Shown: in pieces, positions 37,746-59,421 of the stretch
Numbering within the stretch: position 1 is the first letter of the stretch
Layout of the letters: every line of letters starts with the position of its first letter
Assembly: GCA_977020255.1 (NCBI GenBank)
Contig: CDROCS010003949.1
Span: 372,001 to 436,000, forward strand
Direction of reading: 5' to 3'
DNA: 64,000 nucleotides
Source of the DNA: Obrimoposthia wandeli
Lineage: Eukaryota
The notes under the pieces: generated by a model
Seen by the model: only the letters and a program-made list of their open reading frames with translations
What the model was told of the DNA's origin: nothing
The model's database searches: none
Position numbers and translations under genes: made by a program

Positions 37746-38279
37746 ATTAAAACAAATGTTAAGAATAAACATTGGTTTTTAAACTCATTGAATGAAATAC
37801 CATTGTTTATATTTTTTATTTAGTTGACCCAAATTTTGAATAATCGATTGTGTATAAGCCAGGGCATAAACCTTACCTTCAAAATTTGTTTTATAGGTTT
37901 CGCAATAATCACGGTGTATTGAAAGTATCACTGAATCCACATTTATATGATAAAATTTTGTAACATCTATCGCATAATTTCCTAGAAACTTTGCAATTTT
38001 TTAAATGATTTTTTTAAAGTTGGCTAATCTTACATAACCAAATATTTTATTCTTATAAAAAACTTGCGTACCCATACCCAATGAGTATGTTATAACTTAA
38101 TTTCTCTAATAGGATAATAATCTTTTTTTCCATTTCTATATTATGTGACATTAAAACAGATTGCTGGGTTTTAACTCTAGTGGACATCAAGTTTTGCATC
38201 CAAAATATCAAGTCTATGTTTTAATTATTTAGTTATTTTATTCAATTTATTATTTTTTAAACTAATATGAACATCAACA

Positions 38280-38799: not shown

Positions 38800-39179
38800 T
38801 TTACAAATATTGTTCCTTCAACTTTCATTTAAACGTTTGTTTATTGCAAAATTTTGCTTCTGTTTACGTTTAAATCTTTTTTCTTTTTGACTTTTACTTG
38901 ATTTATCTTTTTTTTAATTAAATTAGCAACGTCTGATAGAACATTATCAAGTTCATTAAGTGCATACTTCTTAAAAGTTGGTATTAATTTATTATCCTTA
39001 GATGAAAGGTAGTCCTTTCCTAATTTTGATATAAATCGCCCGAGTCTCTTCAAAAGAGGAACGGCAAATCTACCTATTGTTCTAAACCAACGGGATCCAT
39101 ATTGCTTACCAACAAAATATGGCTATTCATCACCTTGTTGGCTATTACTATATGCTTTAATTCTTGTCGAATTTGTCAT
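38796..39179 (-). pseudogene. Virion core/cement-type protein remnant (element B)
   Basis: KRLGRFISKLGKDYLSSKDNKLIPTFKK matches 47471-47848. Confidence 0.85.
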
Positions 39180-40219: not shown

Positions 40220-40860
40220 ATTATATACGATGTTGATATCCAAGTAGGATCTCAATAACTATGCCATTTAACAAAGTATTGTTTATGTTTACTAGTACCC
40301 GTAGATTTTAATATTTTTTGAATACGGAAAACGCTATGTTTATTTGATATTACTTGTAGTTCTTGCTTATAAAATTTGCCATGAACGATATTATTGTCAG
40401 CATCTTTAATAGTATACATTATTGGATTACTCTTTTAGATCAATTTTACTTATACGACATATTTCATTGTTTTTTTTAATTGGAGTAGAGCTAATTTAAA
40501 AAACTCTAACATATTAATTTTTTTCTATTTTGCTTTACTAATAATTTTTATCTTATTTCTGTTTATCCATATATTCATAAAACATCTACCGATCTCATTC
40601 CCTTGAAACTCATATGATCAGAGTGGTTATATGCATGTATTATTTTGGCAAAACTTTGATTCACTTTTTATCTCCTTCTTTTATGAAATACTTTTAGTCG
40701 TTTTCTTAAAGTATGATTAAATCTATCTAATAATTCTGTTCTGTATTGCGAAGAAACCGAGAATTGGATTAAATTACTTTGTTTAAATAATGATTTAACT
40801 TGTTGAGTATACAGTTTTTTTCTTAAGTCAGTTTTCACATTTTGCTTAATGTCATATTTT
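40216..40860 (-). pseudogene. Integrase-chromodomain remnant (element B)
   Basis: Reverse complement matches 45800-46446. Confidence 0.8.
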
Positions 40861-40952
40861 AAAATTTCTGTTAATTACATGTTAAAATATATTTGTATTC
40901 ATTATTAATAGAAGAGTATAGAAGCATCTCCATTTGTTCAAAGCTTTAAAAT

Positions 40953-41675: not shown

Positions 41676-41767
41676 AGTAGGTGGATGTGTCCGGTCTAAT
41701 CCACACCCACCCCTACTGTCCTTTAAAACCGTGTAGGTGTGTGGAGTGAAATTTCGTGTATGTGTGT
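41676..41767 (+). repeat. Left TIR of element C
   Basis: Inverse of 51645-51740. Confidence 0.95.
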
Positions 41768-42069
41768 CTCCATTCCACTCAAAGGGGGGAAGGAAGGGGT
41801 ACCCCCCCCACCATATTTGTTAAACTTTTACCATGAATCTCAAAAGTGGTTAGAGAAGACCACGAGAATCCATATTGACCCCGACGGCTTTTCGCAGACG
41901 AGATTTCAAATATTACTACTATTTTTAAGAAAGATTTTAGATTAATAAATTACTACATGTTAAATATCTATGTCAGTTTTAGAATTTAGAGGAGAAAAAT
42001 CGGTCAGATCTATATAATTTAGAGAAGCAAAAACAAAATACGAGACAAAATTATTTTTCAAAATATTTA

Positions 42070-42475
42070 TTAAACATAAAACAACATATTGGCTTCACTC
42101 AAAGTCCAGAGAGGCTGCATTTTCCCGTCATCAGCAAAATATCCATTCAGACGTATTGAGATATTCCATAGTTCTTCATCTAGAATTGGAGCAATCAAAT
42201 ATCCTAGATCATCTTTAAAATCCAGACTGGGATCAGTTTCAAGCTCGAAACAATTTCCTTCATATACATAATCAGGAATGTAAAATCCCAAAATATTTTT
42301 CAGTTGATCAAAATCAGTTGTTGTTAAAATTTCGATGAGATATTTTTTCTCCACTTTTGATATTTTCACAGGATTCATAACTAGTAAAAATTTGATGCCT
42401 CTTTAATATAATACATAGTTTTCTTTTTGAAATTCTTTCTGGATAATAAAAATTTGCTACACATCTCTTATCCAT
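42070..42475 (-). pseudogene. Unknown Polinton accessory gene, one frameshift near 42380
   Basis: MDKRCVANFYYPERISKRK... (ATG 42475, TATAAACA box 37 nt upstream) continues into the 102-codon ORF 42070-42378. Confidence 0.55.
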
Positions 42476-42707
42476 TCTAAAATAAGGAAACTGATTAAAA
42501 ACAATGTTTATAAAAAAGACACATAAGATACAAATAAGATACAAATAAAACTGATTATTAAATGAAAGAAACATAGTAAAACCGATTACAATTTATTACA
42601 CACAAAAGTTAAAACATAGAAATATGAGCACGTTCAATTTTCCACATTGGCAACTTTGTTCCCATTTCATCTTTCTTGTAACCATAAAGTCGAATTGTTA
42701 GAGTCCA

Positions 42708-43085
42708 TTACTTCTTTTTCGGAAACGCATCAATATCAACATATCTTCCATAGTCATCTAGAAATGCTTCATCGGCTCCTCGGATATAAAATTCGTTCTT
42801 ATTGAAAGTAAAATTCGGAACTGCCTTTTCTATTTTCTGTTTAAGATATTGAAAATCAGGTTTTTGAATACCTGATAGATAGTAGCTGAACTTTCTTCTT
42901 TCAATTGTCACAGGATTTACTAAAGCAATCAGCTGAGCCTTCTTCAAGAATCTGACTTTGTATTTGAAATATTGTTTCACTTCTTCATACATATCCTTAT
43001 CCGATTCTTCAAACATTTCTTCGTCATCGCTTAATACCCGTTGGCTATCATCCATTGTTGATAATTGTCTTTGATATGAATGCAT
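42708..43085 (-). CDS. Unknown Polinton accessory protein (125 aa, acidic N-terminus)
   Basis: Open ORF; TATAAAAG 38 nt upstream on the minus strand (43123-43116). Confidence 0.7.
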   Translation of the reverse strand: MHSYQRQLSTMDDSQRVLSDDEEMFEESDKDMYEEVKQYFKYKVRFLKKAQLIALVNPVTIERRKFSYYLSGIQKPDFQYLKQKIEKAVPNFTFNKNEFYIRGADEAFLDDYGRYVDIDAFPKKK

Positions 43086-43334
43086 TTACTGTGATTTGTC
43101 CTCCAATGGCGCATTCTTTTATACTAATTTCTAACAAAGACATGAATCTCATTGGTTAATATAACTAAAGCATTGAATTTGATTGGACTAAATCTATATT
43201 AAAAATCAAAATTGATTGGAAGAAATATATCATCCAATTATAATAGGTTTGCAAGATAATTACAAGAAACGTGCAATAAAAAAGCAGGTTCAGACATATA
43301 TAAAGAAGATTTTACAGAATACAATTTCAGTCTA
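43086..43334. promoter_or_regulatory. Bidirectional Pol II-type promoter
   Basis: Outward-facing TATA boxes (43123-43116 minus; 43299-43305 plus), Inr-like TCAGTC at 43327-43332, and five CCAAT/ATTGG boxes (43103, 43151, 43182, 43215, 43234). Confidence 0.6.
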
Positions 43335-43822
43335 ATGAAACTCGTAAATATAAATTATAAAGGTAGAACAGAAGATGATGTTTCGTACTTACCATTCAAT
43401 GAATGGAAGCCGAGACAATATGTAGAAAAGTTTGACAATTTCACAGTTGTTATTTTTCCTACAGGTTAGTTTTTTATTTTATTTTTATATTGAATTCTTT
43501 AGGAAATTGTCGTGTTATGGGATGCAAAATACCAATGCTTGGGTTCAATTTACCATTTGGAATTCAAATCACTGCAATACAATCAATCACGATTTCGGCT
43601 AATCTCGGGAAACAGATAAATCTTTTTAAAACTGCAGAGAAAATGAAAGAAGAATGCATGTTTGAACCAGAAATTTTTCCTGCTCTCAGTTATTTGAAGT
43701 TTAAACCGCTATGTGTAAATATATTTTCCAGTGGTAAAGTTATGATATTGGGATTGAAAAATTTTGATTATCCAGACATAGTTGATTTGATTTTAGAAAA
43801 TATATCTTATTACATCTTGTAA
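43335..43822 (+). CDS. TATA-binding-protein-like protein (~149 aa, 2 exons: 43335-43464, 43503-43822)
   Basis: A 38-nt GT-AG phase-1 intron joins TVVIFPT-G-NCRVMG; second half FEPEIFPALSY...VNIFSSGKVMILG matches TBP repeat 2 (YEPELFPGLIY...LLIFVSGKVVLTG). Confidence 0.85.
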
Positions 43823-43865
43823 TCTTTTTTCTATAAACAAACCCCGTTTAAACTTATTGTTTCAA

Positions 43866-44138
43866 ATGAATAATACTATAAATAGAGACAATGAAGTGGA
43901 TCGGCTTGCCGATGAAATATTTTCTGGAAAAATTAGGGGTAAAGAAATTTTATCAGAATTAAAAAATAATGATATAACAAGAGATAACATTGAAATATTG
44001 GTTAGATCACACGTTATTCGAGAATTTAGAAATCGTACACAAATAAATAAAATTATAGCCAAATATTCATTAATTAATTTTTGTATTTCATCTACAATAG
44101 CTCTAACATTGTACATTTCAATAAGGAAACTTCTATGA
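43866..44138 (+). CDS. Unknown small protein with a hydrophobic C-terminal segment (90 aa)
   Basis: Open ORF; YSLINFCISSTIALTLYISI could be a membrane anchor; TATAAACA 34 nt upstream. Confidence 0.6.
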   Translation: MNNTINRDNEVDRLADEIFSGKIRGKEILSELKNNDITRDNIEILVRSHVIREFRNRTQINKIIAKYSLINFCISSTIALTLYISIRKLL

Positions 44139-44175
44139 TAATATAAACAATATTAAAAATGAAAGAGTATATGCA

Positions 44176-44823
44176 ATGGAGCTAAATAATAATGCTGTAT
44201 TTCAAATAGTTGGCCCAAGTGGAAGTGGAAAGACACATTTCGTCTGTAAATTGTTGCAAAATGAATCTCTTTTCAAATCTAGTTTCAAAAATATTTATTG
44301 GCATCATAGTGGAGGAGTGGAAAGCGGGTTAACCAAAACAAAAGTTTGCAAGTTGAAGGATATAAAATTTATTGAAGGATTTGATGCAAATTGGTGTGAA
44401 AGATTGAAAAAAGAAGATGTAATAATAATTGATGATTTGTATGAGGAGGCTAACAAGGAATCGGACGTTAATAATTTATTTACAAAGATTGCAAGACATT
44501 GTGAAGTTACAGTTATATTTATCACTCAAAATCTGTTTCACCAAGGAGGTCACCATAGAACAAGAAATCTTAATGTACATTACTTAGTTTTATTTAAAAA
44601 TCCTAGAGATCAAACAGTTGTTGATTTTGTGGCCAGACAGGCATTTCCTCAAAATAAGAACTTTCTAAATGATTCATTCCACGATGCTGCTAAACAAGCA
44701 CATGGGTATATATTTATTGACTTTACACAAGCTTGCCCAGATGATTTACGTGTTTTAACAGACATATTTAATTCTAAGGGAGTAACTGTTTATAAACAAA
44801 TAGAGAACAATTATAAAAAATAA
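44176..44823 (+). CDS. A32/FtsK-like DNA packaging ATPase (element C)
   Basis: Walker A GPSGSGKT, Walker B VIIIDD, ITQNLF, HYLVLFKNPRD. Confidence 0.95.
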   Translation: MELNNNAVFQIVGPSGSGKTHFVCKLLQNESLFKSSFKNIYWHHSGGVESGLTKTKVCKLKDIKFIEGFDANWCERLKKEDVIIIDDLYEEANKESDVNNLFTKIARHCEVTVIFITQNLFHQGGHHRTRNLNVHYLVLFKNPRDQTVVDFVARQAFPQNKNFLNDSFHDAAKQAHGYIFIDFTQACPDDLRVLTDIFNSKGVTVYKQIENNYKK

Positions 44824-44830
44824 ATTCGCA

Positions 44831-44971
44831 ATGCCTTTTACAAAGTTGATAGTAAAACGTAAAGTAAAATCTAAGAAATCAAAAAAAAGAATCATTAAGA
44901 AAAAAGAAGTGAAAAAATTAATCAAATCTGTAGTTAAAAATAAAAAAAAACTTAAATGGCTTCGAATATAA
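44831..44971 (+). CDS. 46-aa Lys-rich basic peptide (putative DNA-condensing core protein)
   Basis: MPFTKLIVKRKVKSKKSKKRIIKKKEVKKLIKSVVKNKKKLKWLRI; not in the supplied ORF track; homologous to the N-terminus of ORF 54169-54597. Confidence 0.65.
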   Translation: MPFTKLIVKRKVKSKKSKKRIIKKKEVKKLIKSVVKNKKKLKWLRI

Positions 44972-45001
44972 ACAATATTTAAATTGAACCTTTTTATTAA
45001 A

Positions 45002-45331
45002 ATGAAGAAAATACAAAGAAGCATACCCTATTTTAAAGCTTTAGTCAAAGCCTCTTCTAATAAGAGAATGATTATTCTTAAAGCATTCCCATCCTTTGTT
45101 GTAGATGATTTATTGGAAGTTTTATATAATATAGTTTTGGGTCGAGTAAAAGTTGGAAATCGGAAAAATATATTAAAGAAATATAGAAAAACTCTTATAG
45201 ATATTGCTAATGTAAAAAGTAAAAAAAGGAAACGAAATATTATTCTTAAACAGAATGGTGGTTTCATAGGGGCTGTTATTCCAGTTGTTGCTTCAATTAT
45301 CAGTAGTATTATAGCTGCGACACGTTCATAA
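45002..45331 (+). CDS. Basic virion protein with a C-terminal QxGG-amphipathic helix
   Basis: Ends KQNGGFIGAVIPVVASIISSIIAATRS; homolog at 54169-54597. Confidence 0.8.
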   Translation: MKKIQRSIPYFKALVKASSNKRMIILKAFPSFVVDDLLEVLYNIVLGRVKVGNRKNILKKYRKTLIDIANVKSKKRKRNIILKQNGGFIGAVIPVVASIISSIIAATRS

Positions 45332-45359
45332 ACAATTATTTCTAAAATCAGCTAAAGAT

Positions 45360-45578
45360 ATGGGTGCTAGCCCTTCTTTACCTAAACTTAAATTTTCTTT
45401 CTATTCAAATTGTTGTAATGGAGAAGATATGGTTCAATCCAAAAGATCCAATTGGCTACACAGGAGTTTCAAAATTAGCAAAAAGAACAAAACAAAATTA
45501 CAAGAAAACGCAGAAATGGCTGAGCGATTAGTTAGCCTACAGTATGAACAAGCCGATGAGAAGAAGGTTTCCAACTAG
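45360..45578 (+). CDS. Overprinted ORF with an N-myristoylation-like start, overlapping the integrase 5' end (72 aa)
   Basis: MGASPS...SNCC; conserved counterpart at 54640-54873; CATAAACA box 33 nt upstream. Confidence 0.6.
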   Translation: MGASPSLPKLKFSFYSNCCNGEDMVQSKRSNWLHRSFKISKKNKTKLQENAEMAERLVSLQYEQADEKKVSN

Positions 45579-46446
45579 AGCTTACAAAACCAGCGGTCCT
45601 AATAATTTATGGCAAATGGATTTGATGGTGATGATCCCATATTCTTCCATTAATAAGGGATATCGATATATTTTAACATGTATTGATGTATTTAGCAGGT
45701 TTGCTCGTGCAATTCCAGTTAAAGCAAAGTCTTCAATAGCTATGCTTGAAGCCATTAAAGAAATATTAAAAGAGGACATTCCACAAAATGTGCAAACTGA
45801 TTTAGGAAAAGAATTTTATAATAAGCAAGTTCAATCATTATTTAAACAAAATAATATAAATCATTACTCTGTGTTTTCACAATAAAAAGCAGCAGTAGTA
45901 GAAAGATTTAATCGTACTCTAAGAGATCGAATAAAAAAGTATTTCACAAAAGAAGGAAATAAAAAATGGATCCAAGTTTTACCTAAAATAATACATGCAT
46001 ATAATCACTCTGAACATAGAGGTCTCAAGGGAATGAGACCTGTTGATGTTACTAATAAAAACTATATGGACATTTGAATGAACAGGAATAAAAAAGATAA
46101 AATTAAAAAAGCTAAATATAAGAAAAACGAATATGTTCGAATTTCGAAAATTAGCTCTTCTCCATTTATTAAAAACTTTGATCAGAATTGGAGCGATGAA
46201 ATATTTTGTATAAGTAAAATTGATCAAAAGAGTAATCCAATAATGTATACTATTAAAGATGCTGACAATAATATCGTTCACGGTAAATTTTACGAGCAAG
46301 AACTACAAGTAATATCAAATAAACCTAGCGTTTTCCGTATTCAAAAAATATTAAAATCTAAAGGTACAGGTAAACATAAACAATACTTTGTTAAATGGCA
46401 TGGTTATTCAGATCCAACTTGGATATCAGCATCTAATATAATATGA
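45418..46446 (+). pseudogene. Retroviral-like (rve) integrase with C-terminal chromodomain, premature stops (element C)
   Basis: MEKIWFNP, WQMDL, LTCIDVFSR, QTDLGKEFYN, VERFNRTL, YFVKWHGY; stops at 45529, 45883 and 46075. Confidence 0.93.
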
Positions 46447-47493
46447 ATTCTATGTATATGGTTTTACCAAGTAACGGATGTCCGAAGACTCAACCAGATA
46501 ATGACGCTAGTAGCTTTATTATCGATTGGGAAAATTCTATAAATCTCCAAGGATAATGGGAAGCGGCTTTAACAGACTTTCCTTTTTATTATTCTCCAAT
46601 TACTATCAAAAAAAACTCACATATTTCGTTTACAAAAGAAGTTGATCATGAAAAAACACCTGAAGTTGTGAAGTTGTAAAGGACAATTCTATTACAATTG
46701 TATAGATAAAGAAGTGAAAGTAATATTTGAAAATAACAAAGTCAGATTTAAAAATCGATTAAAATTTCTTCAAGTTATTAAAATTAATTTTGAATCTAAA
46801 AAAGAAGCTCTTCAATTCAGTTTTGATAGTGAACAAACAGTAGCTCGTAATAAACGGGATATTATCTCATCTAATTCGGTTAGAAATGTTCCTGGTAGAG
46901 TAGCAAAAGTGTTGTTACTTGAAACGAGACCAAAGACTGTAGTGGAACTGAAAACGTTTTCAAAAGATTATAAAATAGATAGTGAAGTGAATTTCTGTAA
47001 ATTAATACAGAAGGAATGTAGTGAATATTTGGATAAATGTGAAACATTAAATGGTAAATTAATGTTTACAGTAAAGAGCAATATAAAACGAGTTTCATTT
47101 GATGATAAACTCGCTAAAAACCTTGGTTTAAACAGAAATACCTTTGAAACCCATACAATAAAAACCATAAAAGCTAAAAATAAGGCAAAGCTTTTAAATG
47201 CTGTTAATCATTTATATATTTATACTAATTTAATAGAACCAACGCTTGTAGGAGGACAGCGAGTTCCACTTTTGAGAACAATATGGATATCTAAAAATGA
47301 AACTAGAGATGGGGACACTGTCGGTATGTGTATAGATCAACCAATGTATCTTCCAGTTTCTCTCTTTTCTATAAACAATATTGAAGTAAATATTAGAGAT
47401 GATTCCGGACAACTAATAGATTTCACGTACGGGGCCAAGACAAGTTTAACAATACATTTAAGAAAACAAAATGGCGAATCCAGCAATAATTGA
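46443..47493 (+). pseudogene. Minor capsid / penton-like protein, frameshifted (element C)
   Basis: MYMVLPSN start, WEAAL, YIYTNLIEP..VGG...PLLRTI, INNIEVNIRD...G, LTIHLRK. Confidence 0.88.
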
Positions 47494-47848
47494 AGCTTAT
47501 AGTCAAAGCCAACAAGGTGGAGAATTACCATATTTTGTTGGTAAACAATACGAATCTGGCTGGCTTAGAACATTAGGTAGATTTGCCTTTCCTCTTTTAA
47601 AGAGACTCTGGCGATTTATATCAAAATTAGGAAAGGATTACCTTTCATCTAATGACAATAAACTAATACCAACTTTTAAGAAGCATGCGCTTGATGAACT
47701 TGATAATGTTTTACCTGAAGTTGCTAATTTGATTAGAAAACGTAAATCAAATAAAAGCCAAGGAGGTAGTGGATTTAAAAGTAAAAAGAAGCTAAAAATT
47801 AATATAAACAAACGTAAGAAAGTTGAAGGAACAATATTTGCAAAATGA
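47471..47848 (+). CDS. Virion core/cement-type protein between penton and MCP (125 aa)
   Basis: QQGGELPYFVGKQY.SGW...LGRFAFPLLK, basic C-terminus; conserved in B and D. Confidence 0.85.
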   Translation: MANPAIIEAYSQSQQGGELPYFVGKQYESGWLRTLGRFAFPLLKRLWRFISKLGKDYLSSNDNKLIPTFKKHALDELDNVLPEVANLIRKRKSNKSQGGSGFKSKKKLKININKRKKVEGTIFAK

Positions 47849-49074
47849 GTTGCGCCAAAACTGAATTATGTATTTTTGATAAACCGCTTCCACAAGTAGT
47901 TGTAGATAATGCTTCCTTTGAAGAAATATTCCTTGTTAACTCAGTTTCAGGAACCACTTTAACCGATTTAGAATTTAATATTAATGGTTCCAATAGCGAG
48001 TATTTAGATTTGAATGATACTTTGCTTTATGTTCAAATAAAAGTATTAAATCGGGATGGTACAAATTTAGATGAAAATGCCGATGTAACACCTATAAATT
48101 ATATATTTAATTCTTTATTTAATGATGCCATTGTTACTCTTAATAATGTCAAAATTGAAGGTGGAAATTCTTCCTATGCTCATAAAGCTTTGATTGAAAG
48201 TCTTTTGAATTATAGTACTGATACTCAAAATACTAATTTGGCAACCATTGGTTATGATAAAACTGATGCAATTCGCAAAGAATGGATTGCAGGTTCTAAA
48301 GCTTACGAAATGTGTGGGTCTTTGAGATTGAATTTATTTGAACAACCGAAATATTTAATTCCCGGTGTTAATGTACATCTTCGTTTGAAACGTAATAAAT
48401 GGAATTTTTCTTTGAAAAGCACGGACATTCTAAAACCTAGACTTGATATTTTGGATGCAAAATTGTATGTTTGAAGAGTTAAAACCGAGCAATCAGTTTT
48501 AATGGCACATAATATAGGAATGGAAAAAAACAATGCTTGTTATCCTATTAGAGAAACTAAACTTATATCTTATTCTTTAGGTACGGGTACACAAGCTTTT
48601 AATAAGGATCAAATTTTTGGTGATGTATGATTACCGAAATTCATTTTAATTTCTTTTCAAAAAACTGCAAAGTTTCTAGGAAATTATACGACAGATGCAA
48701 CTCAATTTGACAATCTTAATGTTGGTTCAGTGACACTTTCAAGAAATACTGATTATCGTGAAACATATAAAACAGAATTCGAAGGTAACGCTTATGCTTT
48801 GGCTTATACCCAATCTATTATTCGAAATTTGGGTCAACTAGATAAAAATATAAACAATGGTATTTCTTTCACTGACTTTAAAAACAGCTGCCCGTTCTTC
48901 ACATTTGTTTTGGCACCAGACTTTGATATAAACCAATGTCAACTACCAAAGAATGGAAATTTACGACTAGAAATTAAGTTCAATGCAGCTTTAACAAATC
49001 CTACTACGGTGCTTATTTACGGAGTATTTGATTCGGAAATACAAATCAATAAAAACAGAACTGTCATATTATAG
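47845..49074 (+). pseudogene. Double jelly-roll major capsid protein, two in-frame TGA stops (element C)
   Basis: One frame throughout: ELCIFDKP, YLDLNDTLL, QPKYLIPGVNVHLRL, FTFVLAPDFD, GNLRLEIKF; stops at 48472 and 48628. Confidence 0.92.
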
Positions 49075-49075
49075 A

Positions 49076-49456
49076 ATGGAGTAAGACATATTTTAAATTT
49101 ATATTTATTAATTTTTATTTAGTTCAAAACAAGTAAAAGAATCAGCAGAGAAGGTCCTGGGTGATAAATTCAATGGAGTTTATCCTATTGATATGATTCC
49201 ATTTTTTCAATCTGGAGGTTACATTATCAATACTCATACTTCGAATTTACCAGGAGAACATTGGATAGCTATTTATGTTAGAGAGTGGACAATACATGTA
49301 TTTGATCCACTTGCAATGTATTATCCACACAAACTTGTTTCAACTATTCAAAAAGGACGAAGAAGAGTATTTTACAACAAGATACAATATCAGGATCCTG
49401 CGACGAGAAACTGTGGACATTTATGTATTTTATGGTTATCGTTGCAAAACAATTAG
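49076..49456 (+). CDS. Adenain-like maturation protease, 2 exons (49076-49080, 49123-49456)
   Basis: ATG GA|GTAAGA...TTTAG|T TCA gives MDSKQVKES...; catalytic H (GEHW), D (FDP), Q and C (NCGHLC). Confidence 0.9.
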
Positions 49457-49729
49457 TGTTATAAAAATAAAAATTTTAAATGTTTTATTTTGAATTATTT
49501 TTTAAATTTCTAAAAATATAAGGGTAAAATAATAAAAGACATAAGACAATTTTTTTTAATACATTTATTAATCACAACATCACAATGAGATATGTCAGCA
49601 AAGATAAGGCATAATAAATAAGGTCCATCCTAAAAAAGTATTGAAATAACAAATAAGTTAGAGTCTAAGTGCCATAAGGATCTAAAATTTTAAAAAACTA
49701 AACTAAAAAAATCAAAAAATGAAAACCGT

Positions 49730-50530
49730 TTAAATTCTGAAGTGTCCATAAGCCAGGCTAGCGTTCTTTTCTACCCAAAAGCGCTTGTCATCATTACTAC
49801 TCAAAGCGATTTTGGTTGATTTATGGGAATACAGTTGATGGGCTCTTGAAATAAATCTAGTTTGCTCAACGCTTTCAATACACCCAGTATCATAAACTTT
49901 CTGGTAGGTGTCATGTGTAAGATTGTTTCTTCCCACACCCTTTGCTCTCATTGAACATGTATTATTAGATGCATGTAAACTGTAGCATTTAGGGCGTAGG
50001 AAAATACAATCATCATACGAAACCTGTCCCTCGCTTTCATCCTTAAATTTCCCGATAATGTTCTTTAAACTCATAGAGTGTAGAGGATGGTTAGCGGGAT
50101 ATTTATGGGTATCTAGTAAGTTGTCCCTAAACATTGCTGGTAATAATTGATTATTTAAACTAACATTCCTACATTCTAAAAAGAAAGAGTCAGTGTCCCC
50201 AGCTGCGATTTTAATCTCAAAATTAAATTCTTGTCGGTATTTCTCCAATTCTATGTATTGAAGCTCATACATTCTGAGTTTAGAAATGTCTAAAACCGTT
50301 TGACCTATATAACTCGGTCGATCGAGACAAATACTCTGTTTTCCTAATAACACTGCTACCAAGTCATCTGCAATTGTAAAACTACGCTTGAAGTTGTACT
50401 TGCTAGTATATGTTATTAGTTTACGCTCATCATTTTAAAACCGTAGACAAATACGTTTCTGCAAGTCCTCTACAGTTTTTCCAAAGAGACTATTACTTTT
50501 TAACTTGTAAAAATCTCGATCGAATTAGAG
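49730..50530 (-). pseudogene. polB: 3' fragment of protein-primed PolB (element C)
   Basis: DRPSYIGQ, AAGDTDS, GKFKDE, FLRPKCY, MRAKGV, DDKR; the 5' part is absent. Confidence 0.92.
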
Positions 50531-50531
50531 C

Positions 50532-50930
50532 GTCCAATGAGAGCGGGTTAATCAAATAATTTATTTGAAAATCAGTAGGCTTTTCTCAATTTTTTAACTA
50601 TGTTTGAATGCTGGAATGTCATTGGATAAAACATATTTTATTCGAAAATATATCACTAAACTTTTGTTGTCCAATGAGAGCGGGTTATTCAAATAATTTA
50701 TTTGAAAATCAGTAGGCTTTTCTCAATTTTTTAACTATGTTTGAATGCTGGAATGTCATTGGATAAAACATATTTTATTCGAAAATATATCACTAAACTT
50801 TTGTCGTCCAATGAGGGCTGGGTATTCAAATAATTTATTTGAAAATCAGTAGGCTTTTCTCAATTTTTTAACTATGTTTGAATGCTGGAATGTCATTGGA
50901 TAAAACATATTTTATTCGAAAATATAACTA
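50532..50930. repeat. 3 x 137-bp tandem repeat
   Basis: Units start at 50532, 50669 and 50806; each contains TCCAATGA and its inverse TCATTGGA. Confidence 0.95.
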
Positions 50931-51156
50931 TTTTCTTAAGATTTTCTTAAGATTTTCTTGTATAAGTTTAACGTCCAATGAAAACGTATTATTCAAAGAA
51001 TTTATGTTATTTTCTTAAATTTTGTTAAGATTTGGATTTAAAATAGTAATATTTTCTTAAATTTTGTTAATATTTGGATTTAAAATAGTAATATTTTTTT
51101 GACTGTACATGTTTGGATGGTATAAAAAATTCATGAACTCATTTCAGTTCAAGTTA

Positions 51157-51269
51157 AGGTCATTACCTTATGAGGTCATCATCGTGAGGTCAAGGTCATT
51201 TAAGGTCATCATGAGGTCAAGGGTACAAAGTTGTCTAGGTCATCATGAGTTCAAGATCACTTAAGGTCA
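51157..51269 (+). promoter_or_regulatory. Cluster of eight co-oriented AGGTCA hexamers
   Basis: At 51157, 51173, 51187, 51193, 51203, 51214, 51237 and 51264. Confidence 0.5.
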
Positions 51270-51644
51270 TGATGACTAATTTGATGACTCATCAAATAAA
51301 AATGCAAATTATTTCGAATTTATGTAGTTGATTATTTAAAAAAATTTTGTGACCCTATATATGTATCTTTCTTATAAAGAAATTTTTTTTTATGACCTTG
51401 TATATATGTATGGATTTAAATTTTTATAAGGAAAATTTTTTCGCGCCCGCGAGCCTGTATTTATTACTCGTTGATCCACCGCGGGCCCTTAGAGCACGCT
51501 TTGGCCATTTTTTTGGCCTCTCAGGACCTTAATCAAAATTTTGGGAGCATTATGAGATTTTAAAATTTACAGGGTGTTAAATGGAGTTTGTTTTTTTTTT
51601 GTTTTTTTTTTGAGTGTTTGAGATGGGGGGGTAGAAAATTTTCT

Positions 51645-51740
51645 ACACACCTACACGAAATTTCACTCCACACACATGCACGGTTTTAAAGGACAGTAGG
51701 GGGGAGGGGGTGTGGATTAGACCGGACACATCCACCTACT
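51645..51740 (-). repeat. Right TIR of element C
   Basis: Inverse of 41676-41767, followed by the TSD CTCCTT. Confidence 0.95.
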
Positions 51741-52023
51741 CTCCTTCCATACCTTCATCGCTCGGCAACCTCCGATGTCCAGACCGCCTTCCTTGGATGC
51801 AGTCCTGTTTTAATGGTACATCAGAGAGACTGTGTGTACAGCACAAATCGATATTTCCAATGCAGTTCAATTTCACAGTCTGTCGGCTAATATCTCCCTA
51901 TCTCTGCCATACGCACTCTGTTAACTGTGGCTGACTGTGTGTATGTACTTCTTGGATAACAACACAATTTAATCGTCACACAAAAATAAAATTACGAATA
52001 CAAGTGGATTTTGCTATTATCTG

Positions 52024-52135
52024 AAATTGAAAACAAAAGTTGAAAGTTATTGAAACTATTATCATAAATTGAAAACAAAAGTTGAAAGTTATTGAAACTA
52101 TTATCATAAATTGAAAACAAAAGTAGAAAGTTATA
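52024..52135. repeat. 42-bp tandem repeat (~2.7 copies)
   Basis: AAATTGAAAACAAAAGTTGAAAGTTATTGAAACTATTATCAT at 52024, 52066 and 52108 (partial). Confidence 0.9.
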
Positions 52136-52668
52136 TCAATTTATCTGAAATATAACATATATTCAAACACATAAATCATCAAAACAAGCTTGTGTAAAGT
52201 CGATAAATAAGTAATCATGTGCTTGTTTAGCATACCCTCAGCCATGATGCTAATAAATATTTTGAAACTGGAATTGAAAAGCGTTATATTTTGTAACATT
52301 TCACATAAAAAATGTGTCTTTTCACTTCCACTGGCTCCAACTACTTGTTATACAGCATTATTATTCAGCTCCATTTCATATACTCTTTCATTTTAATAAT
52401 CTTTAGCTCAAGTAGGGGGATGTGGCACTTCTGGCACAAAAAGTATGAGAGAAGGGGGGTGCCAGCATAATTGAAGGTGTGTATGATGTAATAACATGTG
52501 TGTATTACGCCATAAGTATGTTTAAAAACTCTAGACTATGAATATTTTATTGAAACAATTTTGTATAATATATCTCCTCATACTTGTATTTTTCTTATTC
52601 ACTCATGTGATTTGCATTTATATTGATTTATTTTATATAAACAAAGCTTATTTAGTTCTAATATAAAG

Positions 52669-53431
52669 ATGAATGAAGTGATTGTTGATGATGATGTTCC
52701 AATTAAATCTACTCCAGATAATGTGTCTCATACCGCAATCAAAGTAATTCCTTATTATATAATATAATCTAAATCTTTAAAAGATGGAAAAAGTAAATGA
52801 AGAATCAGAATCAGAAGCAGTGACACCGCCAAGAACAGAAGATGCTATGGTTATTGAAGAGCATCGATTGAAATTTTTAAATGGATTAGATTTAATAGAG
52901 CATATAATAACCGATGCTTCTAGTATGGAAATGAACCATATGAGACGTCTTTTTAATAGATTGTTTAATTTTAGATATTGTCAACTTTATAAAGAAAACT
53001 TAGTCAGGACAAAAATGAGTGAAATTCTAACAGATAAACTTTATATTGGTAATTATCGTGATGGGTTTGATGAAACTAGTCTACTCAAATCCGGATTTAC
53101 TCATGTTATCAATACATCTCATTCAGATCATATTCAATATAAAGAACTAAAGTTTACATCTGTTTTCATCAAAAAGAGAGAAACAGTGATGAAGTATTAT
53201 AAACTAACTAATAGTATTATTCAGGAAAATATCGAAAACGGAGGAAACGTTTTAGTTTATGGACATTATGGGATTGATCTCTCTGTGGGTATTGTAATCG
53301 CATTTTTATCTCTTTCTATGCCTGTTAGTATTGTTTCTCACCTTGTTAAATCTAGGCGTAGTATTGCTACACAAACGGATATTATGTGTTCTCAAATCCG
53401 TCTTTTTAATCGATTCTGTGAATCTATGTAA
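52669..53431 (+). CDS. Dual-specificity-phosphatase-fold protein, predicted inactive; probable 2 exons (52669-52743, 52784-53431)
   Basis: LYIGNY, GFTHVIN, GGNVLVYGHYGIDLSVGIVIAFL (canonical VLVHCxxGxSRS), VKSRRS; 40-nt phase-0 GT-AG intron candidate; TATAAACA 33 nt before ATG 52669. Confidence 0.8.
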
Positions 53432-53524
53432 ATGTTTGTTTATGAACTGTCTATGTTTTATAATAAATTACTTTTGATATATTTATGTCTTATAAACATT
53501 AACCTATTACACTGATTGTTTAAT

Positions 53525-54172
53525 ATGGAATTGAAAAATAATGCGGTTTTCCAAATTGTAGGACCTAGTGGTAGTGGGAAAACTCATTTTATTTGTAAAT
53601 TACTTCAAAATAATAAATATTTTAAATTCAAGTTTAATAAGATATATTGGCATCAGGGTGGAGATGGCGAAGCTGGACTAACAAAGATGGAATTTAATAA
53701 AATAAAAAATATAAAAGTTATAAATGGGTTTGATGATAATTGGTCTGATCGATTACAACGTCATGATGTTATTGTTATTGATGATTTGTATCAGGAAGCA
53801 AATAAAGAGAGTGATTTCAATAATTTATTCACTAAAATAGCAAGACATCGCGAAGTGACTGTTATTTTCATTACACAAAATCTATTTCATCAGGGTGGTA
53901 ATCATAGAACTCGTAATTTAAATGTACATTATCTTGTTCTTTTCAAGAATCCACGTGATCAAACTGTTGTTGATTTTGTTTCACGTCAAGCCTATCCGAA
54001 TAATAGAAATTTCTTAATCGAATCATTTCAAGATGCTACTACTACTCCTCATGGATACATTTTCATTGATTTTACTCAAGATTGTCCCGATGAATTAAGA
54101 ATTAAAACTGATATATTCAATCTTAATGGTATTAGCATCTATAAACAAATGAAAAAACAAGTTTCACGATGA
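53525..54172 (+). CDS. A32/FtsK-like DNA packaging ATPase (element D)
   Basis: GPSGSGKT, VIVIDD, ITQNLF, HYLVLFKNPRD. Confidence 0.95.
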   Translation: MELKNNAVFQIVGPSGSGKTHFICKLLQNNKYFKFKFNKIYWHQGGDGEAGLTKMEFNKIKNIKVINGFDDNWSDRLQRHDVIVIDDLYQEANKESDFNNLFTKIARHREVTVIFITQNLFHQGGNHRTRNLNVHYLVLFKNPRDQTVVDFVSRQAYPNNRNFLIESFQDATTTPHGYIFIDFTQDCPDELRIKTDIFNLNGISIYKQMKKQVSR

Positions 54173-54597
54173 TGACTTTCAAAAAGGAAATTATTAAACC
54201 TGAAGTTAAGAGATTATTTAAATCAGTGCTAAACGAACGAAAAAATATGAAACAAATAGTTGTTCCGAAATCAGATAAGAAATCTAGGAGTATTGCCTAT
54301 TTCAATTTTCTTATGCGTGCACCCACAAATCGACGACCTGCTATTCTTAAATCTTTTCCTACGTTTGTAATTGATGATATGCTACATATGATTCAGAAAA
54401 TAGTTTCCGGTAAAATATCTGTTAAAAATCCAAATAAATTAAAACAGCATAAAAAGCCACTTCTTGATATGTTTCAAGCTAAAACACAAGCTGGCAAGCG
54501 TAAGTTATTGTATAAACAGAGTGGAGGATTTCTTGGTTTTCTAGTTCCTATAGTTGGCTCTATACTCGGAGCAGTTGCTAGCAGATTAATAAAATGA
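54169..54597 (+). CDS. Basic virion protein with a C-terminal QxGG-amphipathic helix (142 aa)
   Basis: Ends KQSGGFLGFLVPIVGSILGAVASRLIK. Confidence 0.82.
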   Translation: MMTFKKEIIKPEVKRLFKSVLNERKNMKQIVVPKSDKKSRSIAYFNFLMRAPTNRRPAILKSFPTFVIDDMLHMIQKIVSGKISVKNPNKLKQHKKPLLDMFQAKTQAGKRKLLYKQSGGFLGFLVPIVGSILGAVASRLIK

Positions 54598-54639
54598 TGG
54601 TTATAAACATGTATTTTGAGCTAAAAACATTAAATTTGT

Positions 54640-54873
54640 ATGGGTTCACTTCCATCTATACTGAAGTTCAAAATAAAAATCAATTCATCCTGTTGTAATG
54701 GAGAAGATATGGTTCAATCCAAGTCATCCCGTTGGTTATACTGGAATTTCAAAATTAGCAAAAGAAGTAAAGAAGACAAAAAAGGAAACCAAAACATGGC
54801 TGGGAAATCAGTTAGCGTACAGTTTAAACAAACCGATGAGACGTCGTTTTCCAACGAGATCATACAAGACTAG
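54640..54873 (+). CDS. Overprinted ORF with an N-myristoylation-like start (77 aa)
   Basis: MGSLPS...SSCC; homolog of 45360-45578; TATAAACA 38 nt upstream. Confidence 0.6.
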   Translation: MGSLPSILKFKIKINSSCCNGEDMVQSKSSRWLYWNFKISKRSKEDKKGNQNMAGKSVSVQFKQTDETSFSNEIIQD

Positions 54874-55736
54874 TGGACCTAATGATTTATAGCAAGCTGA
54901 TTTAATGGAAATGATTCCATATGATCGTATTAATGATGGATACCGATATATTTTAACGTGTGTTGATGTTTTCAGCAAAACAGCAAGAGCTATACCATTA
55001 AAGTCAAAATCAGGTTCTGACGTACTGAAAGCAATGAAAAAATTATTTTCAGACGTGAAACCAGTTAATTTTCAAACCGATAAAGGGAAGGAGTTTTACA
55101 ATAAAAATGTTAGTAACTTATTGAAGAAACATGGTATTAACCATTATTCTGTGTTTTCTCAATATAAAGCAGCTTTAGTAGAACGGTTTAATGATTAAAC
55201 TTTAATCGAACATTGAGAGATCGTTTGAAAAGGTATTTCACTAATATCGGAAATAAGACATGGATTACCGTTTTACCCAAAATAATACGAGCATATAATC
55301 ATAGTCCACATAGAAGCTTAGATGGAAAGAGACCAGTTGACATTTCTGATAAAAATGCAATGGAAAGTCTCAGCGTAATAAAAAACAGGTTGTAGAGAAA
55401 CCGAAATATAAGATTGGAGATTATGTTCGAATATCACAAATAAGTACTACTCCTCTTATAAAGAATTTTAAAGAGAATTGGAGTGATGAGGTTTTCCAAA
55501 TAACTAAAATTGATACTAGTCATAACCCGGTAATGTATTTCATTGAAGATGAAACAAATAATGAAATTAGTGGCAAGTTTTATCATGAAGAACTACAAGT
55601 ATTACCCTCAAAGCCCAAAGTATATAGAATTCAAGAAATAGTGAAAACAAAGGGTCGAGGAAAGCATAAACAATATCTAGTTAAGTGGCATGGATAAACT
55701 GAACCTAGTTGGATATTAGCTTCTCAAATAGAATGA
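54698..55736 (+). pseudogene. rve integrase-chromodomain with stops and frameshifts (element D)
   Basis: MEKIWFNP, TCVDVFS, QTDKGKEFYN, VERFN, YLVKWHG. Confidence 0.93.
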
Positions 55737-56761
55737 CTTCAATGTACGTTGTATTACCAAGTAATGGTTTGCCATTAACTCAACCGGATAATAATGCAAG
55801 TAGTTTCAAAATTGATTATCAAAGTTCAATCAATTTACCGGGAGCTTGGGAAGCTGCTCTGACGGAATTTTCATTTAATTATTCTCCTTTATCTATTAAA
55901 TGGGGGTAAATTATAGATTATGTTGTACATAAATCAATAAAAACTGAAGTTGAAGCTGGTTTGAAAATGAAACAAGGAGAATTTTTCGTCAAGTATATAA
56001 CTCCAACTAATAGTAAATATGTCATTTACCTAAGCGGTGAAGACAAAATACGTATAACTCGCACTATGGGACAAGCTTTCAATTTAGAAATTGATAATAA
56101 AAGTTTAGCATTAAGTTACGGTATGAAAGAAGCTGCTATTGAAAGTATGTTTTATGAATCGGAATTACCTAATCAAATATATGATTTACCGACTTTAAAG
56201 ATAAAGATGCATCATTATAATCAAGAGGATGTACGTGAGCAGTATGCATTCAAAAATGATTGCTTATTTTCCAATGTTGAAAGTCTTTGTAAATATTTCT
56301 TGAAAAATATTGATAATATATTTGAAAGCTTTTATGTTAAAAATGAAATGATTGAGTTTAAATTGAAATCAAATATAAAAGAAATAAATATGGATAAAAA
56401 TTTAGCTACAATTATTGGATTCAATGAAAACAGTTTTAAAAATCTTAATAAAGTTTTCCAAGCATCTAATCGGGCAAAGCTAAGTAATGCATATAATCAG
56501 ATTTATATTTACACAAGTATTACTGAACCGATATTCGTAGGTGGAAATAGGCTTACATTAATAAAATCTATTTGGGTTCAACAGGAAAAGCACAAGTATG
56601 GAAATGTTATACATATCCCAATTGATAATCCAATGTATATTCCAGTAAGCTCAAGCTTTATAAACAATATCGAAGTTAATATTCGGGATGATTCTGAAAG
56701 ATTAATTAAATTTTCATTTGGAGCTAAAACAAGTTTAACAATACATTTTAGAAAAATATGA
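55733..56761 (+). pseudogene. Minor capsid / penton-like protein, single premature TAA at 55907 (element D)
   Basis: MTSMYVVLPSNG...WEAAL in the same frame as ORF 55961-56761 (YIYTSITEP, INNIEVNIRD). Confidence 0.88.
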
Positions 56762-57120
56762 TTGATGCGAGTATTGTAAATGCATATAGTAAACCGATGT
56801 AGGGAGGAGAACTATCTTATTTTGTGGGCAAACAGTACGGTTCAGAATGGATGAAAACACTTGGTCGCTTTGCTTTCCCTATTCTTAAACATATTGGTCA
56901 ATTCATTGCTAAAGTAGGTTCTAAATATTTATCAGGTGATGAAAAATTAGTTCCAACACTCAAAAAGGCAGCTTTGGATGAGGTGGATGGAATTTCTCCT
57001 GATTTAGCTGATTTTCTAAGAAAGAAAACTCAATCTGGAACAGGTTATAAACGAAGAAAAACTACAAAGAAAATTATAAACAAACGATTGAAACTAGGTG
57101 GAACAATATTTAAAAAATGA
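56758..57120 (+). pseudogene. Virion core/cement-type protein, one premature TAG (element D)
   Basis: MIDASIVNAYSKPM*GGELSYFVGKQYGSEW...LGRFAFPILK. Confidence 0.85.
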
Positions 57121-58346
57121 GTTGTGCTAAATTTGAATTGTGTATTTTTGATAAACCACTTCCTCAAATAGTTGTGGATAGTGCTTGTTTTGAAGAAATA
57201 TTTCCGACGAATACAGTAACTGGTGCAGCGAGTCCCGATGTGGAATTCAATATCAATGGATCAAATTCACAATATCTCGATTTGAATGATACTTTATTGA
57301 CGATTAAATTAAAAGTTATAAAGGAAAATGGAAAGGCATTACAAGCCACGGCTGATATTGAAGCAGCGGATTTCATGTTTCATACTCTTTTCAAGGATGT
57401 AATTCTCAGTCTTAATAACGTTAAAGTTGAAGGAAATAATATCAGTTATACTCATAAAGCAGTAATTGAAACCCTATTGAATTATGGAAATGATACGAAA
57501 TCAATTAGTTTAGATGCTATTGGATATGATAATAATTCAGCGAATAGAAAATCATGTATTCAAAAATCGAAAACGCTAACCATGTGCGGTAGTCTCCATT
57601 TAGATTTCTTCAAACAACCAAAATATCTTCTACCTGGAGTTAATGTGCATCTTCGAATGAAGAGAAATTCAGCTGGATACAGTGTAAGTTGTGCAAATAC
57701 AATTCTACCTGCAATTGAGATTCTAGAGGCTAAATTACTGATTAGAAGAGTAAAAGTTGAACCTTCCGTATTGATTGGACATCAAATAGGTCTCGAGAAA
57801 CATAATGCTTCTTATCCAATTAGGAAAACAAATATAATTTATCATGCTATTCCAAGCGGTTCCCTCTCATATAATAAGGATCAAATATTCGGAGATATGC
57901 AACTCCCAAACTTTGTTTTGATTGCGTTCTAGGAAACATCGGCATTTGGTGGACATTCTGCAAAGGATATATCTCTATTTCCTAATATGAATGTTAGTTC
58001 AATTAAACTTGCTCGCAATATGGATTTCCGTGAAGTATATACTAATGACTTTGACGATGATGATTATGTCATGTCTTATGTCCAATCACTAATAAGAAAT
58101 CTGGGACATTTAGATAAGGATTCCAATATTGGTATTTCCATGACTGATTTCAGAGATAAATATAGTCTTTTCACATTTGTTCTTAGTCCTGATTTTGATA
58201 TTAATCAAGCTCAAGTTCCAAAGCAGGGACATCTAAAAGTAGAAATTAAGTTTAAGAAAGCCCTAATTAAACCAACAAATATCATCATCTATGGAGTTTT
58301 TGATTCTGAGATTCAAATCACTAAAGGTGGAAGTGTGATAGTATAA
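57117..58346 (+). pseudogene. Double jelly-roll major capsid protein, single TAG at 57930 (element D)
   Basis: ORFs 57117-57932 and 57987-58346 share a frame; same motifs as the C MCP. Confidence 0.92.
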
Positions 58347-58377
58347 ACGGAAGAAAGTACGCTGAAAAATAATAATA

Positions 58378-58753
58378 ATGAAGTAAGAATATTAATTTAT
58401 ATAATATAACTAATTCTAGTTCAGATGAAATACTAATCAGCGGCAGAAAACTTCTCGACAGTAGATTTATTGGAGTCTATAGTCTTGATAATATCCCGGA
58501 ATTTACTCGAACGGAAGGATATATCATTAATACACAGTCATCGAATTTGGCTGGAGAACATTGGATAGCAATACATGTTGAACCAAAAGAAATTTTTGTT
58601 TTTGATCCCTTTGGGTTTTATTACCCATCAAAATTAGTATCTGCAGTGCTTGATTCTTCAAAACAAGTACATTTCAATAAGAAACATTATCAAAATGTTT
58701 TAACACAGACATGTGGACAACTTTGTCTGCTATGGTTAAAGTATAAACATTAG
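58378..58753 (+). CDS. Adenain-like maturation protease, 2 exons (58378-58382, 58420-58753)
   Basis: ATG AA|GTAAGA...CTAG|T TCA gives MNSDEIL...; GEHW, FDP, YQ, TCGQLC. Confidence 0.9.
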
Positions 58754-58789
58754 ATATAAACAATTTCAAATAAAATAAATTGAACAAAA

Positions 58790-59281
58790 ATGTCTGTTTA
58801 TTTTATCGATTTTGAAGCTTTAATAGATTCAAATAAAGAAGTCGTAATTAAAGAGCTATGTATTATGAATGTTGATAATATTTTGTTTCCTAAACATTAT
58901 GTATTTAAAATGAAACCTATGTGGAACAAAATGGATTATTTTACAAACAGAATCAATAGATATTTAGTCAAAAGATTTCATTATCTAAAACTAGTTGATG
59001 GTAATAGTTTCTTTAATCCAATTGAAATAAATCGATCAATTAAACGAGACTGTGATTTAGATAAATCTATTTTTTATGTTATTGATAAATATAATGGCTT
59101 TAAATTTCAAACCTTAAAGAAATACTTTCCTGAAATGAGAATTATAAATTATTCAAAAAGTTTAAAAGAAATTATTTCATCTAATATTAAATGTCCGTAT
59201 ATTGAACATGGATCGCACTGTGCATATAAAAAATGCTTTGCTGCATGTCTTGATTTCAAATTAACTATACTTAATAAATAA
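58790..59281 (+). CDS. DEDD/DnaQ-like small protein with a C-terminal CxxxxHxxHC motif (163 aa)
   Basis: YFIDFEA...IKELCI resembles an ExoI motif; open ORF; homolog decayed in element A. The fold assignment is tentative. Confidence 0.65.
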   Translation: MSVYFIDFEALIDSNKEVVIKELCIMNVDNILFPKHYVFKMKPMWNKMDYFTNRINRYLVKRFHYLKLVDGNSFFNPIEINRSIKRDCDLDKSIFYVIDKYNGFKFQTLKKYFPEMRIINYSKSLKEIISSNIKCPYIEHGSHCAYKKCFAACLDFKLTILNK

Positions 59282-59375
59282 TTATGTAATAAAAACCCAT
59301 ATTTTTATAAATACACACACAAAAGTATGCATATTTTAATTCTATACATGCTGACCTGTTGCGTCACATCATGCA

Positions 59376-59406
59376 TATAAAAGGATGCGATTGTATTTGT
59401 TCAGTC
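59376..59406 (+). promoter_or_regulatory. Canonical TATA + Inr promoter of the PolB transcription unit
   Basis: TATAAAAG at 59376-59383, TCAGTC at 59401-59406, ATG at 59422. Confidence 0.6.
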
Positions 59407-59421
59407 TTTTACTTTTCAATT

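Follow-up and report, generated by a model that had tools for sequence, protein, structure and literature searches.

A conserved TATA variant ahead of packaging, integrase and putative capsid genes in Polintons of Obrimoposthia wandeli, a candidate late core promoter

We analysed a 64,000-nucleotide (nt) stretch of the Obrimoposthia wandeli assembly (contig CDROCS010003949.1, positions 372,001 to 436,000; hereafter the window), which carries two Polintons, C and D. In this Polinton clade almost all packaging, putative capsid and integrase genes are each preceded by one copy of TATAAAC(A/G), a conserved variant of the TATA box and a signal kept at the DNA level. This box is very probably a core promoter, because it is conserved, constrained where it overlaps codons, biased to one strand and followed by an ATG boundary near +30. 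On balance, and with distinctly less assurance, we also favour its being a late core promoter that would be read by the TBP-like protein encoded by the element itself, acting with the RNA polymerase II (Pol II) of the host. It has long been asked whether animal Polintons make virions, and by what means, and a conserved promoter that marks the virion module, together with a candidate element-encoded reader, makes Polinton transcription directly testable.

Boxes in the two elements and their relatives

A preliminary description of this DNA, made from its letters alone, had listed 18 pairs of box and ATG in two Polintons, and all 18 were found at their positions and with their spacing, counted from the first base of the box. 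It had also put the background of ATAAACA at about one per 3 kb and called the placement far from random. With both strands counted, the window has 49 copies, or one in roughly 2.6 kb, which is close to that figure. We conclude that the placement is not chance because 20 host loci, with 133,422 strand-bases between them, contain (C/T)ATAAAC(A/G) 27 times, a background at which a 75-nt stretch holds a match with P about 0.015. Matches to (C/T)ATAAAC(A/G) run 9 sense to 1 antisense in the late cluster of C and 12 to 1 in that of D, with 0 on either strand in the PolB region of D. Positions 1–41676 of the window hold 10 matches, 6 of them in stretches similar to C, and at least 4 of those are orthologous box sites of older relics.

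In C, TATAAACA lies at 42505–42512 on the minus strand, 37 nt before ATG 42475, and again at 43832–43839 on the plus strand, as are all boxes that follow, 34 nt before ATG 43866 of a gene of 90 amino acids (aa). The A32-like packaging ATPase gene (44176) starts 34 nt from the box at 44142–44149, with ATGs at +17 and +29 bypassed; in its tail, in a Y-K-Q frame, the box at 44791–44798 stands 40 nt before a 46-aa lysine-rich open reading frame (ORF) that was found again in six relatives. The box at 44967–44974 is 35 nt before 45002, a 109-aa gene tentatively labelled PW-like. At 45327–45334, CATAAACA holds the upstream stop codon and precedes a Met-Gly ORF (45360) by 33 nt and the integrase ATG (45418) by 91 nt; the same CATAAACA recurs within the integrase chromodomain at 46375–46382, 68 nt before the putative minor capsid gene (46443). 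The minor capsid tail contains the box at 47370–47377, in an I-N frame and 101 nt before 47471 (tentatively PZ-like), and the PZ-like tail contains that at 47803–47810, 42 nt before the putative major capsid gene (47845). The preliminary description had seen no exact box before the C protease, and we likewise found only a degenerate TATAAACC at 48927–48934, 149 nt before ATG 49076 with a 3-codon upstream ORF between; in other host families this site reads TATAAACA. A box at 48849 was ruled out as the C protease promoter, since three ATGs intervene.

Element D repeats the arrangement. The box at 52636–52643 is 33 nt before 52669, the predicted exon 1 of a DSPc-like gene, and that at 53491–53498 is 34 nt before the ATPase gene. 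The box at 54140–54147 lies 29 and 32 nt before tandem in-frame ATGs of a 142-aa gene with lysine-rich and PW-like parts, which more likely starts at the second of them (+32). At 54602–54609 the box stands 38 nt before the Met-Gly ORF (54640), with the integrase ATG at 54698. The putative minor capsid gene follows CATAAACA at 55665–55672 by 68 nt, the PZ-like gene follows the box at 56659–56666 by 99 nt, and the putative major capsid gene follows that at 57075–57082 by 42 nt, with a second box, TATAAACG, at 57046. Across the capsid-gene stop codon, TATAAACG at 58342–58349 is 36 nt from protease ATG 58378 (PF00770), and two boxes within 58742–58762, starting at 58742 and 58755, are 48 and 35 nt from 58790, a 163-aa gene that is exonuclease-like by motif. 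One extra box, at 54511–54518 in the PW-like tail, is unlikely to serve 54640 because ATGs at +83, +86 and +98 come first; in two relatives (L021, L025) a box 79–86 nt upstream serves an extra ORF at the equivalent place.

ATGs 45360 and 54640 open the Met-Gly ORF and not the integrase, whose own ATG lies 58 nt further on in the +1 frame. This small ORF, which carries a Cys-Cys motif, extends across the integrase start (45360–45578 and 54640–54873) and is conserved in L001, L003, L005, L007, L011, L015 and L017; throughout the relatives and the window the integrase ATG is 49–61 nt past its start, in the +1 frame. It has no Pfam match, and its product looks like a myristoylated membrane peptide. 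The box also serves as an annotation aid, by which small genes missed by homology (the lysine-rich and Met-Gly ORFs) are found and start codons fixed.

We then compared relatives, using 56 metagenomic loci fetched by capsid-protein alignment. From 47 of these we took the upstream regions of genes whose start could be placed and that had 120 nt or more before it, 122 regions remaining after near-duplicates of >80% identity had been removed; these regions and the host copies share ancestry, and the counts that follow are not independent trials. (C/T)ATAAAC is present in 104 of the 122 regions, compared with a mean of 5.0 and a maximum of 12 in 200 shuffles and 0 on the antisense strand; the top 7-mer is ATAAACA (95/122). 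By best match, 75 regions have exact TATAAACA, 32 have one mismatch (position 1, 18; position 8, 9; inside, 5) and 15 have two or more. Among distinct relatives the capsid gene has the box upstream in 30/33, the three misses being 25–37% identical to the reference. No box precedes the capsid gene in L046, L048 and L052, loci too short to reveal a TBP-like gene. The box is retained across loci of about 29–45% GC, which likely come from different hosts.

Host copies, in 7–9 sequence clusters per gene, carry the box before the ATPase in 33/34, the major capsid gene in 34/35, the PZ-like gene in 36/38 and the minor capsid gene in 35/35, where 19 of the 35 boxes are AATAAACA. Equal frequency before host genes, which the preliminary description would have counted against the motif, was not found: a box lies within 160 nt in 0/12 host genes (8 histone H3, 4 TBP-family), a thin control from which 3 histone loci without an ATG and 10 bacterial-looking HSP20 loci were left out. 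The HSP20 matches of the assembly (L135–L144) have IbpA-like starts and Shine-Dalgarno-like motifs, which suggests contaminating contigs.

Constraint on the box and the inferred start site

The AAC codon had been said to persist where the box lies in the upstream gene, and this holds: Ile-Asn is written ATA AAC in 30/32 PZ-like tails, 17/22 capsid tails, 15/36 minor-capsid tails and 6/8 protease tails. We considered whether constraint on the protein might have produced the motif incidentally, or whether it might mark the 3' end of the gene before it, given that most boxes lie in upstream-gene tails, that 13/113 include a stop codon and that TATAAA resembles polyadenylation-signal variants. The same dipeptide, however, uses ATA AAC at only 4/140 internal sites (not de-duplicated). 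The box is found in every frame and also beyond annotated genes (113 boxes: I-N frame, 56; Y/H-K-Q frame, 15; stop codon inside, 13; outside annotated genes, 29), and its site shifts among lineages, from 33 to 116 nt before the PZ-like gene. It also precedes genes that have no co-oriented upstream gene (L011 1990; L011 PolB), and cleavage after boxes deep in a reading frame would remove the stop codon of that frame. Late genes show no shortage of internal AATAAA (71 copies against 58 expected; 8 loci), leaving shared 3' ends unsupported, and avoidance of (C/T)ATAAAC inside genes is weak (5 observed versus 8.1 expected). We give this explanation very little credence.

The preliminary description had offered a Forkhead site (RYAAAYA) as its alternative, and ATAAACA does match that consensus as given there; a host activator would then bind it. 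A Forkhead site would be expected to tolerate variants and either orientation. The variants are at background, with GTAAACA in 2, GTAAATA in 2 and ATAAATA in 4 regions against ATAAACA in 95 of the 122, and antisense ATAAACA is found in 2/122, whereas ATAAACG, which is outside the consensus, occurs in 16/122. The sharp ATG boundary described below also suits a core promoter, and we regard Forkhead binding as highly improbable.

As a core promoter the box can be read in the TATA register, as T1-A-T-A-A-A-C7-R8. Of 113 boxes, 110 have A or G at position 8, and position 1 is loose in the manner of TATA boxes, in line with the rules for TBP sites (PMC13566119). C at position 7 departs from the canonical TATAWAWR consensus; according to the same source, a C or G there must adopt Hoogsteen pairing if Leu-72 is to be avoided.

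We used the positions of ATGs to locate the start of transcription. When the first ATG at or after a given distance from the box is taken, it is the in-frame start for 58/113 boxes at +8, 94 at +29, 105–108 at +30 to +33, and 96 at +34. ATGs occur at 43/1443, 20/888 and 17/441 up to +32 (2–4%), then at 2/2359 from +33 to the start codon, a count from which in-frame ATGs are excluded by construction and out-of-frame ones are not. The first-ATG rule is satisfied by all 18 window pairs, 7 of which hold 10 ATGs before +30, and the modal distance from box to ATG is 33. Because ATGs are common to +32 and almost absent beyond, we infer that transcription starts near +30 to +32 at the spacing usual for Pol II TATA boxes, so that leaders would be very short. 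No clear peak of a pyrimidine-purine initiator was seen near +30 among the boxes. In contigs of one sample (four runs), none of the 15 joints listed, of 15 + 166, had GT..AG ends.

The TBP-like protein and the reading of the box

The TBP-like gene of C (43338–43822, plus strand; PF00352; predicted short intron after codon 44) has a canonical TATATAAAG and TCAGT upstream, without TATAAAC. Canonical TATA boxes had been reported before this gene, the 43085(-) gene and PolB of D, with an initiator at two of the three, and we recovered both: TCAGT is clear only for the TBP-like gene and for D PolB, where it accompanies canonical TATAAAAG at 59376–59405 (plus strand) before the predicted first exon (ATG 59422). 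The box is found in 0/51 upstream regions of TBP-like genes, and a canonical TATA, often with CCAAT, precedes the gene in 37/46 host copies. In the D copy of the window the TBP-like gene is nearly all lost; it is present in 7/7 other D copies fetched. Families C and D share the codon position of its predicted intron, which several relatives lack.

The protein, about 150 aa long with its closest full-length homologues at 146–157 aa, belongs to the TBP family by its PF00352 match and its predicted two-lobed saddle fold. A model of the homologue P0086 (predicted local distance difference test score, pLDDT, 93; 10-sequence alignment) aligns with PDB 1QN3 end to end on the TBP core (Z 12.7, root mean square deviation (rmsd) 2.6 Å, 146 residues) and with cellular TBPs at Z 10.5–13.1 (12–13 for most) and rmsd 2.5–3.0 Å, the next family scoring Z 6.1; in an atlas search P0086 matched only TBP clusters. 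The model and the profile alignment show reduced helices in the N-terminal lobe. This short family is large (P0089–P0237: clustering at 50% identity gives 56 representatives with E no higher than 1e-30), and in a tree 71/78 rows stand apart from cellular TBPs with support 100/99.

The DNA-binding face departs from that of the family. Among 51 homologues (Arabidopsis numbering) V29 is N in 46, V80 is R in 49, T82 is M in 51, N117 is S in 50, V119 is T in 41 and L163 is N in 51, with the register of the first strand taken from the sequence/profile alignment (in the structural alignment the first pair stands one residue off) and a one-residue gap ambiguity at L163; L72 is I, L or V in 23, 15 and 11. 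Three of the four intercalating phenylalanines are kept (F74, F148, F165), with no conserved F57, and the changes at V29, V80, V119 and L163 are conserved and polar. Both canonical host TBPs retain canonical residues in the contact region. The EPE[IL]F stirrup is conserved in the TBP-like proteins, and we presume its role to be with TFIIB. This remodelled face, together with the box-free promoter of its own gene, fits a role for the protein in reading the box.

On this basis we propose the following sequence. The TBP-like gene, from its canonical TATA/CCAAT promoter, would be transcribed by host TBP. Host TBP would bind TATAAAC less readily, C at position 7 needing a Hoogsteen pair to clear Leu72, and the viral protein, with its changed DNA-facing residues, would bind the box and, by way of the C-terminal stirrup that it has retained, bring in the machinery of the host. 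RNA would then start about 30–32 nt from the first T, giving leaders mostly shorter than 15 nt, from which the first ATG met would be used, the integrase being reached by leaky scanning past the cap-proximal Met-Gly ORF.

Alternatively, the box may be a weak TATA read by host TBP or a TBP-related factor, with late genes turned on when template number rises after replication and the viral protein acting elsewhere, e.g. as a decoy. A C7 box can be bound by host TBP through a Hoogsteen pair (PMC13566119; PMC8643651; PDB 1QN3), the host genome has two canonical TBPs and two divergent TBP-related genes, PolB takes either box type depending on lineage, and the inferred spacing is ordinary for Pol II. 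A weak TATA could arise in many ways, yet only 5 of the 107 best matches with at most one mismatch vary at positions 2–7; the box persists across the range of GC, and likely of hosts, given above; and the DNA face of the viral protein is changed yet nearly invariant in the 51 homologues. We consider this explanation unlikely, though far from negligible.

A further possibility is that a helper-virus transcription factor reads the box, as giant-virus machinery reads the promoters of virophages. Virophages and certain Polinton-like viruses are known to be read in this way. Against it, nuclear host Pol II is indicated by the predicted spliceosomal introns and by the CCAAT and canonical TATA boxes, and the element encodes a TBP-fold protein of its own; helper reading seems to us quite improbable here.

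Several observations weigh against a late promoter read by the element's own protein. The early/late cascade suggested by the preliminary description is supported as regards the core promoter and fits the box-free TBP-like gene, but a strict split is not clean: PolB follows the box at a distance of 48 nt in L011 and 34 nt in L018 and follows a canonical TATA in D, and the phosphatase-like, exonuclease-like and integrase genes, which are non-structural, are also behind it. C7 slows but does not prevent host TBP binding (PMC13566119). No canonical TATA lies within 130 nt of the TBP-like gene in 9/46 host copies, L003, L011 and L029, or within 100 nt in L115, and in L011 the gene begins 2 nt after a box-preceded ORF. 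To the alignment ambiguities at the first strand and L163 must be added that L72 is still Leu in 15/51 homologues and that in L115 the V80 equivalent is His, not Arg, yet boxes persist. Two of the 113 boxes are <30 nt from the assigned ATG. As to co-occurrence, each near-complete relative from outside the host that carries the box (three: L003, L011, L115) encodes the TBP-like protein, and the single negative element is the distant Polinton L118, whose TBP-like protein is placed apart from this family, on a branch that is long and unsure, and which has no positioned box; no replacement motif was found in it. A search of viral contigs for negative-control Polintons gave L118 only, plus one non-Polinton TBP. 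L115 also has TATAAATA upstream of its exonuclease-like gene.

Weighing these points, we regard it as an evenly balanced matter whether this widespread Polinton clade runs a self-encoded early-to-late switch from a minimal kit, in which one TBP derivative of ∼150 aa and a TATA changed at a single base would steer host Pol II to some ten virion and packaging genes that overlap and have almost no leader.

Neighbouring features and known systems

Polinton C occupies 41676–51740 (plus strand; target-site duplication CTCCTT); its PolB is mostly deleted and several genes are broken by stops. D occupies 52411–64000 (plus strand; target-site duplication AGCTCA), and its right terminal repeat ends 254 nt past the window. 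Both have terminal inverted repeats and a 6-bp target-site duplication, and both ends begin AGTAG. Pfam identifies a type B DNA polymerase (PF03175, E 1.8e-9), an rve integrase (PF00665, E 7.1e-14), a packaging ATPase (PF04665, E 2.2e-6) and an adenovirus-like C5 protease (PF00770, E 3.4e-6), along with an integrase chromodomain, a DSPc-like gene and a TBP domain. Pfam gave no match to the double and single jelly-roll capsid proteins that mark Polintons, nor any for the major capsid, minor capsid, PW-like, PZ-like and exonuclease-like products, and we take these putative labels from size and gene order.

Head-to-head with the TBP-like gene is a 125-aa gene (42708–43085, minus strand) that has canonical TATAAAAG and several CCAAT boxes upstream and that gave no usable match in the atlas search. 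It and 42070–42475 (minus strand) are distant paralogues (26% identity), the latter behind a TATAAAC box and the former behind a canonical TATA; homologues of the pair adjoin the TBP-like gene in D copies and L003. Short GT..AG introns are predicted near the starts of the protease, phosphatase-like, PolB and TBP-like genes (window 49076, 58378, 52669, 59422, 43469; host copies L060–L113). ATG 52669 looks like exon 1 of the phosphatase-like (DSPc-like) gene ending at 53431, and ATGs 58378 and 49076 look, from the GT..AG ends, like tiny first exons of the protease.

Element D sits within an older, decayed C-like element on the minus strand (52141–52396; L057 264–3013). Older Polinton relics lie at 4003–8882, 22428–22691 and 34968–40933, several of which retain the box at orthologous sites, and 28242–33931 (minus strand) contains retrotransposon-like fragments (DUF5641; weak DUF1758) with a spectrin-repeat exon at 33095–33931. 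The Polinton load of the host assembly is very high: a first look for the D ATPase gave 41,336 candidates, of which the top 150 are 95–100% identical to it. One D copy (L066 2679–7309) has about six tandem copies of the segment from the PW-like gene through the Met-Gly ORF to the integrase start, and Polinton-like contigs (L115, L116, L117, L118) occur within bacterial genome bins and a giant-virus bin.

Terminal repeats and a 6-bp target duplication, as well as PolB, an rve integrase, an A32-like ATPase and a C5 protease, are common to the two elements and to Polintons, Mavericks and adintoviruses (PMC8097293). That a TBP gene is present in such viruses has already been noted, as a 'TBP' label in the Fig. 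5 legend for MELD viruses with adintovirus-like PolB (PMC8502044); the part of its supplement that was searched gave no match. In the literature searched, which lay outside subscription journals, Repbase and bioRxiv supplements, we found no Polinton paper with this motif, a promoter motif or an early/late programme, nor any account of how animal Polintons are transcribed, and neither 'TBP' nor 'TATA' was found by term search of PMC11161782, 10.1101/2023.08.22.554363, PMC8097293, PMC11296320, 10.64898/2026.10.13.758929 and 10.64898/2026.06.19.733378.

With cellular TATA/TBP systems (TATAWAWR; adenovirus major late promoter variants) the box shares the 8-base register and the inferred start spacing. 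A C7 variant has been crystallised with plant TBP (PDB 1QN3; PMC8643651; PMC13566119), but C7 is rare among cellular TATA boxes and fixed in the Polinton box, and compared with cellular TBP the Polinton protein has lost much of the N-terminal-lobe helix and many conserved contacts. As a natural TBP whose DNA contacts have changed and which seems to have a site to match, the protein is of interest for TBP specificity at large.

The closest parallel is the late system of beta- and gammaherpesviruses (BcRF1 of Epstein-Barr virus, ORF24 of KSHV (Kaposi's sarcoma-associated herpesvirus), UL87 of human cytomegalovirus), in which structural-gene promoters likewise carry a one-base TATA variant and the TBP mimic likewise combines a TBP fold with polarity where it contacts DNA. 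At the positions of yeast V122, V161 and L205, KSHV ORF24 has polar residues (PMC12529657), and so has the Polinton protein. The two systems also differ. The Polinton box is changed at position 7 (C) and the herpesvirus TATT at position 4 (T). ORF24 has 752 aa, a Pol II-binding domain and a need for five partners (PMC4893493; PMC12529657), whereas the Polinton protein, at about 150 aa, is a TBP fold only, with no Pol II-binding domain of its own, and is without one of the four phenylalanines that ORF24 retains; fold similarity to BcRF1 is weak (E 8e-3). Homologues of the five further factors of the herpesvirus pre-initiation complex were absent from the Pfam matches of accessory ORFs, no search having been aimed at them. 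By analogy, then, the Polinton system would work like the herpesvirus TATT system and not be a member of it. If this is true, these 'transposons' have been selected for a regulated particle-making phase, through an independent reinvention of the herpesvirus late-promoter strategy.

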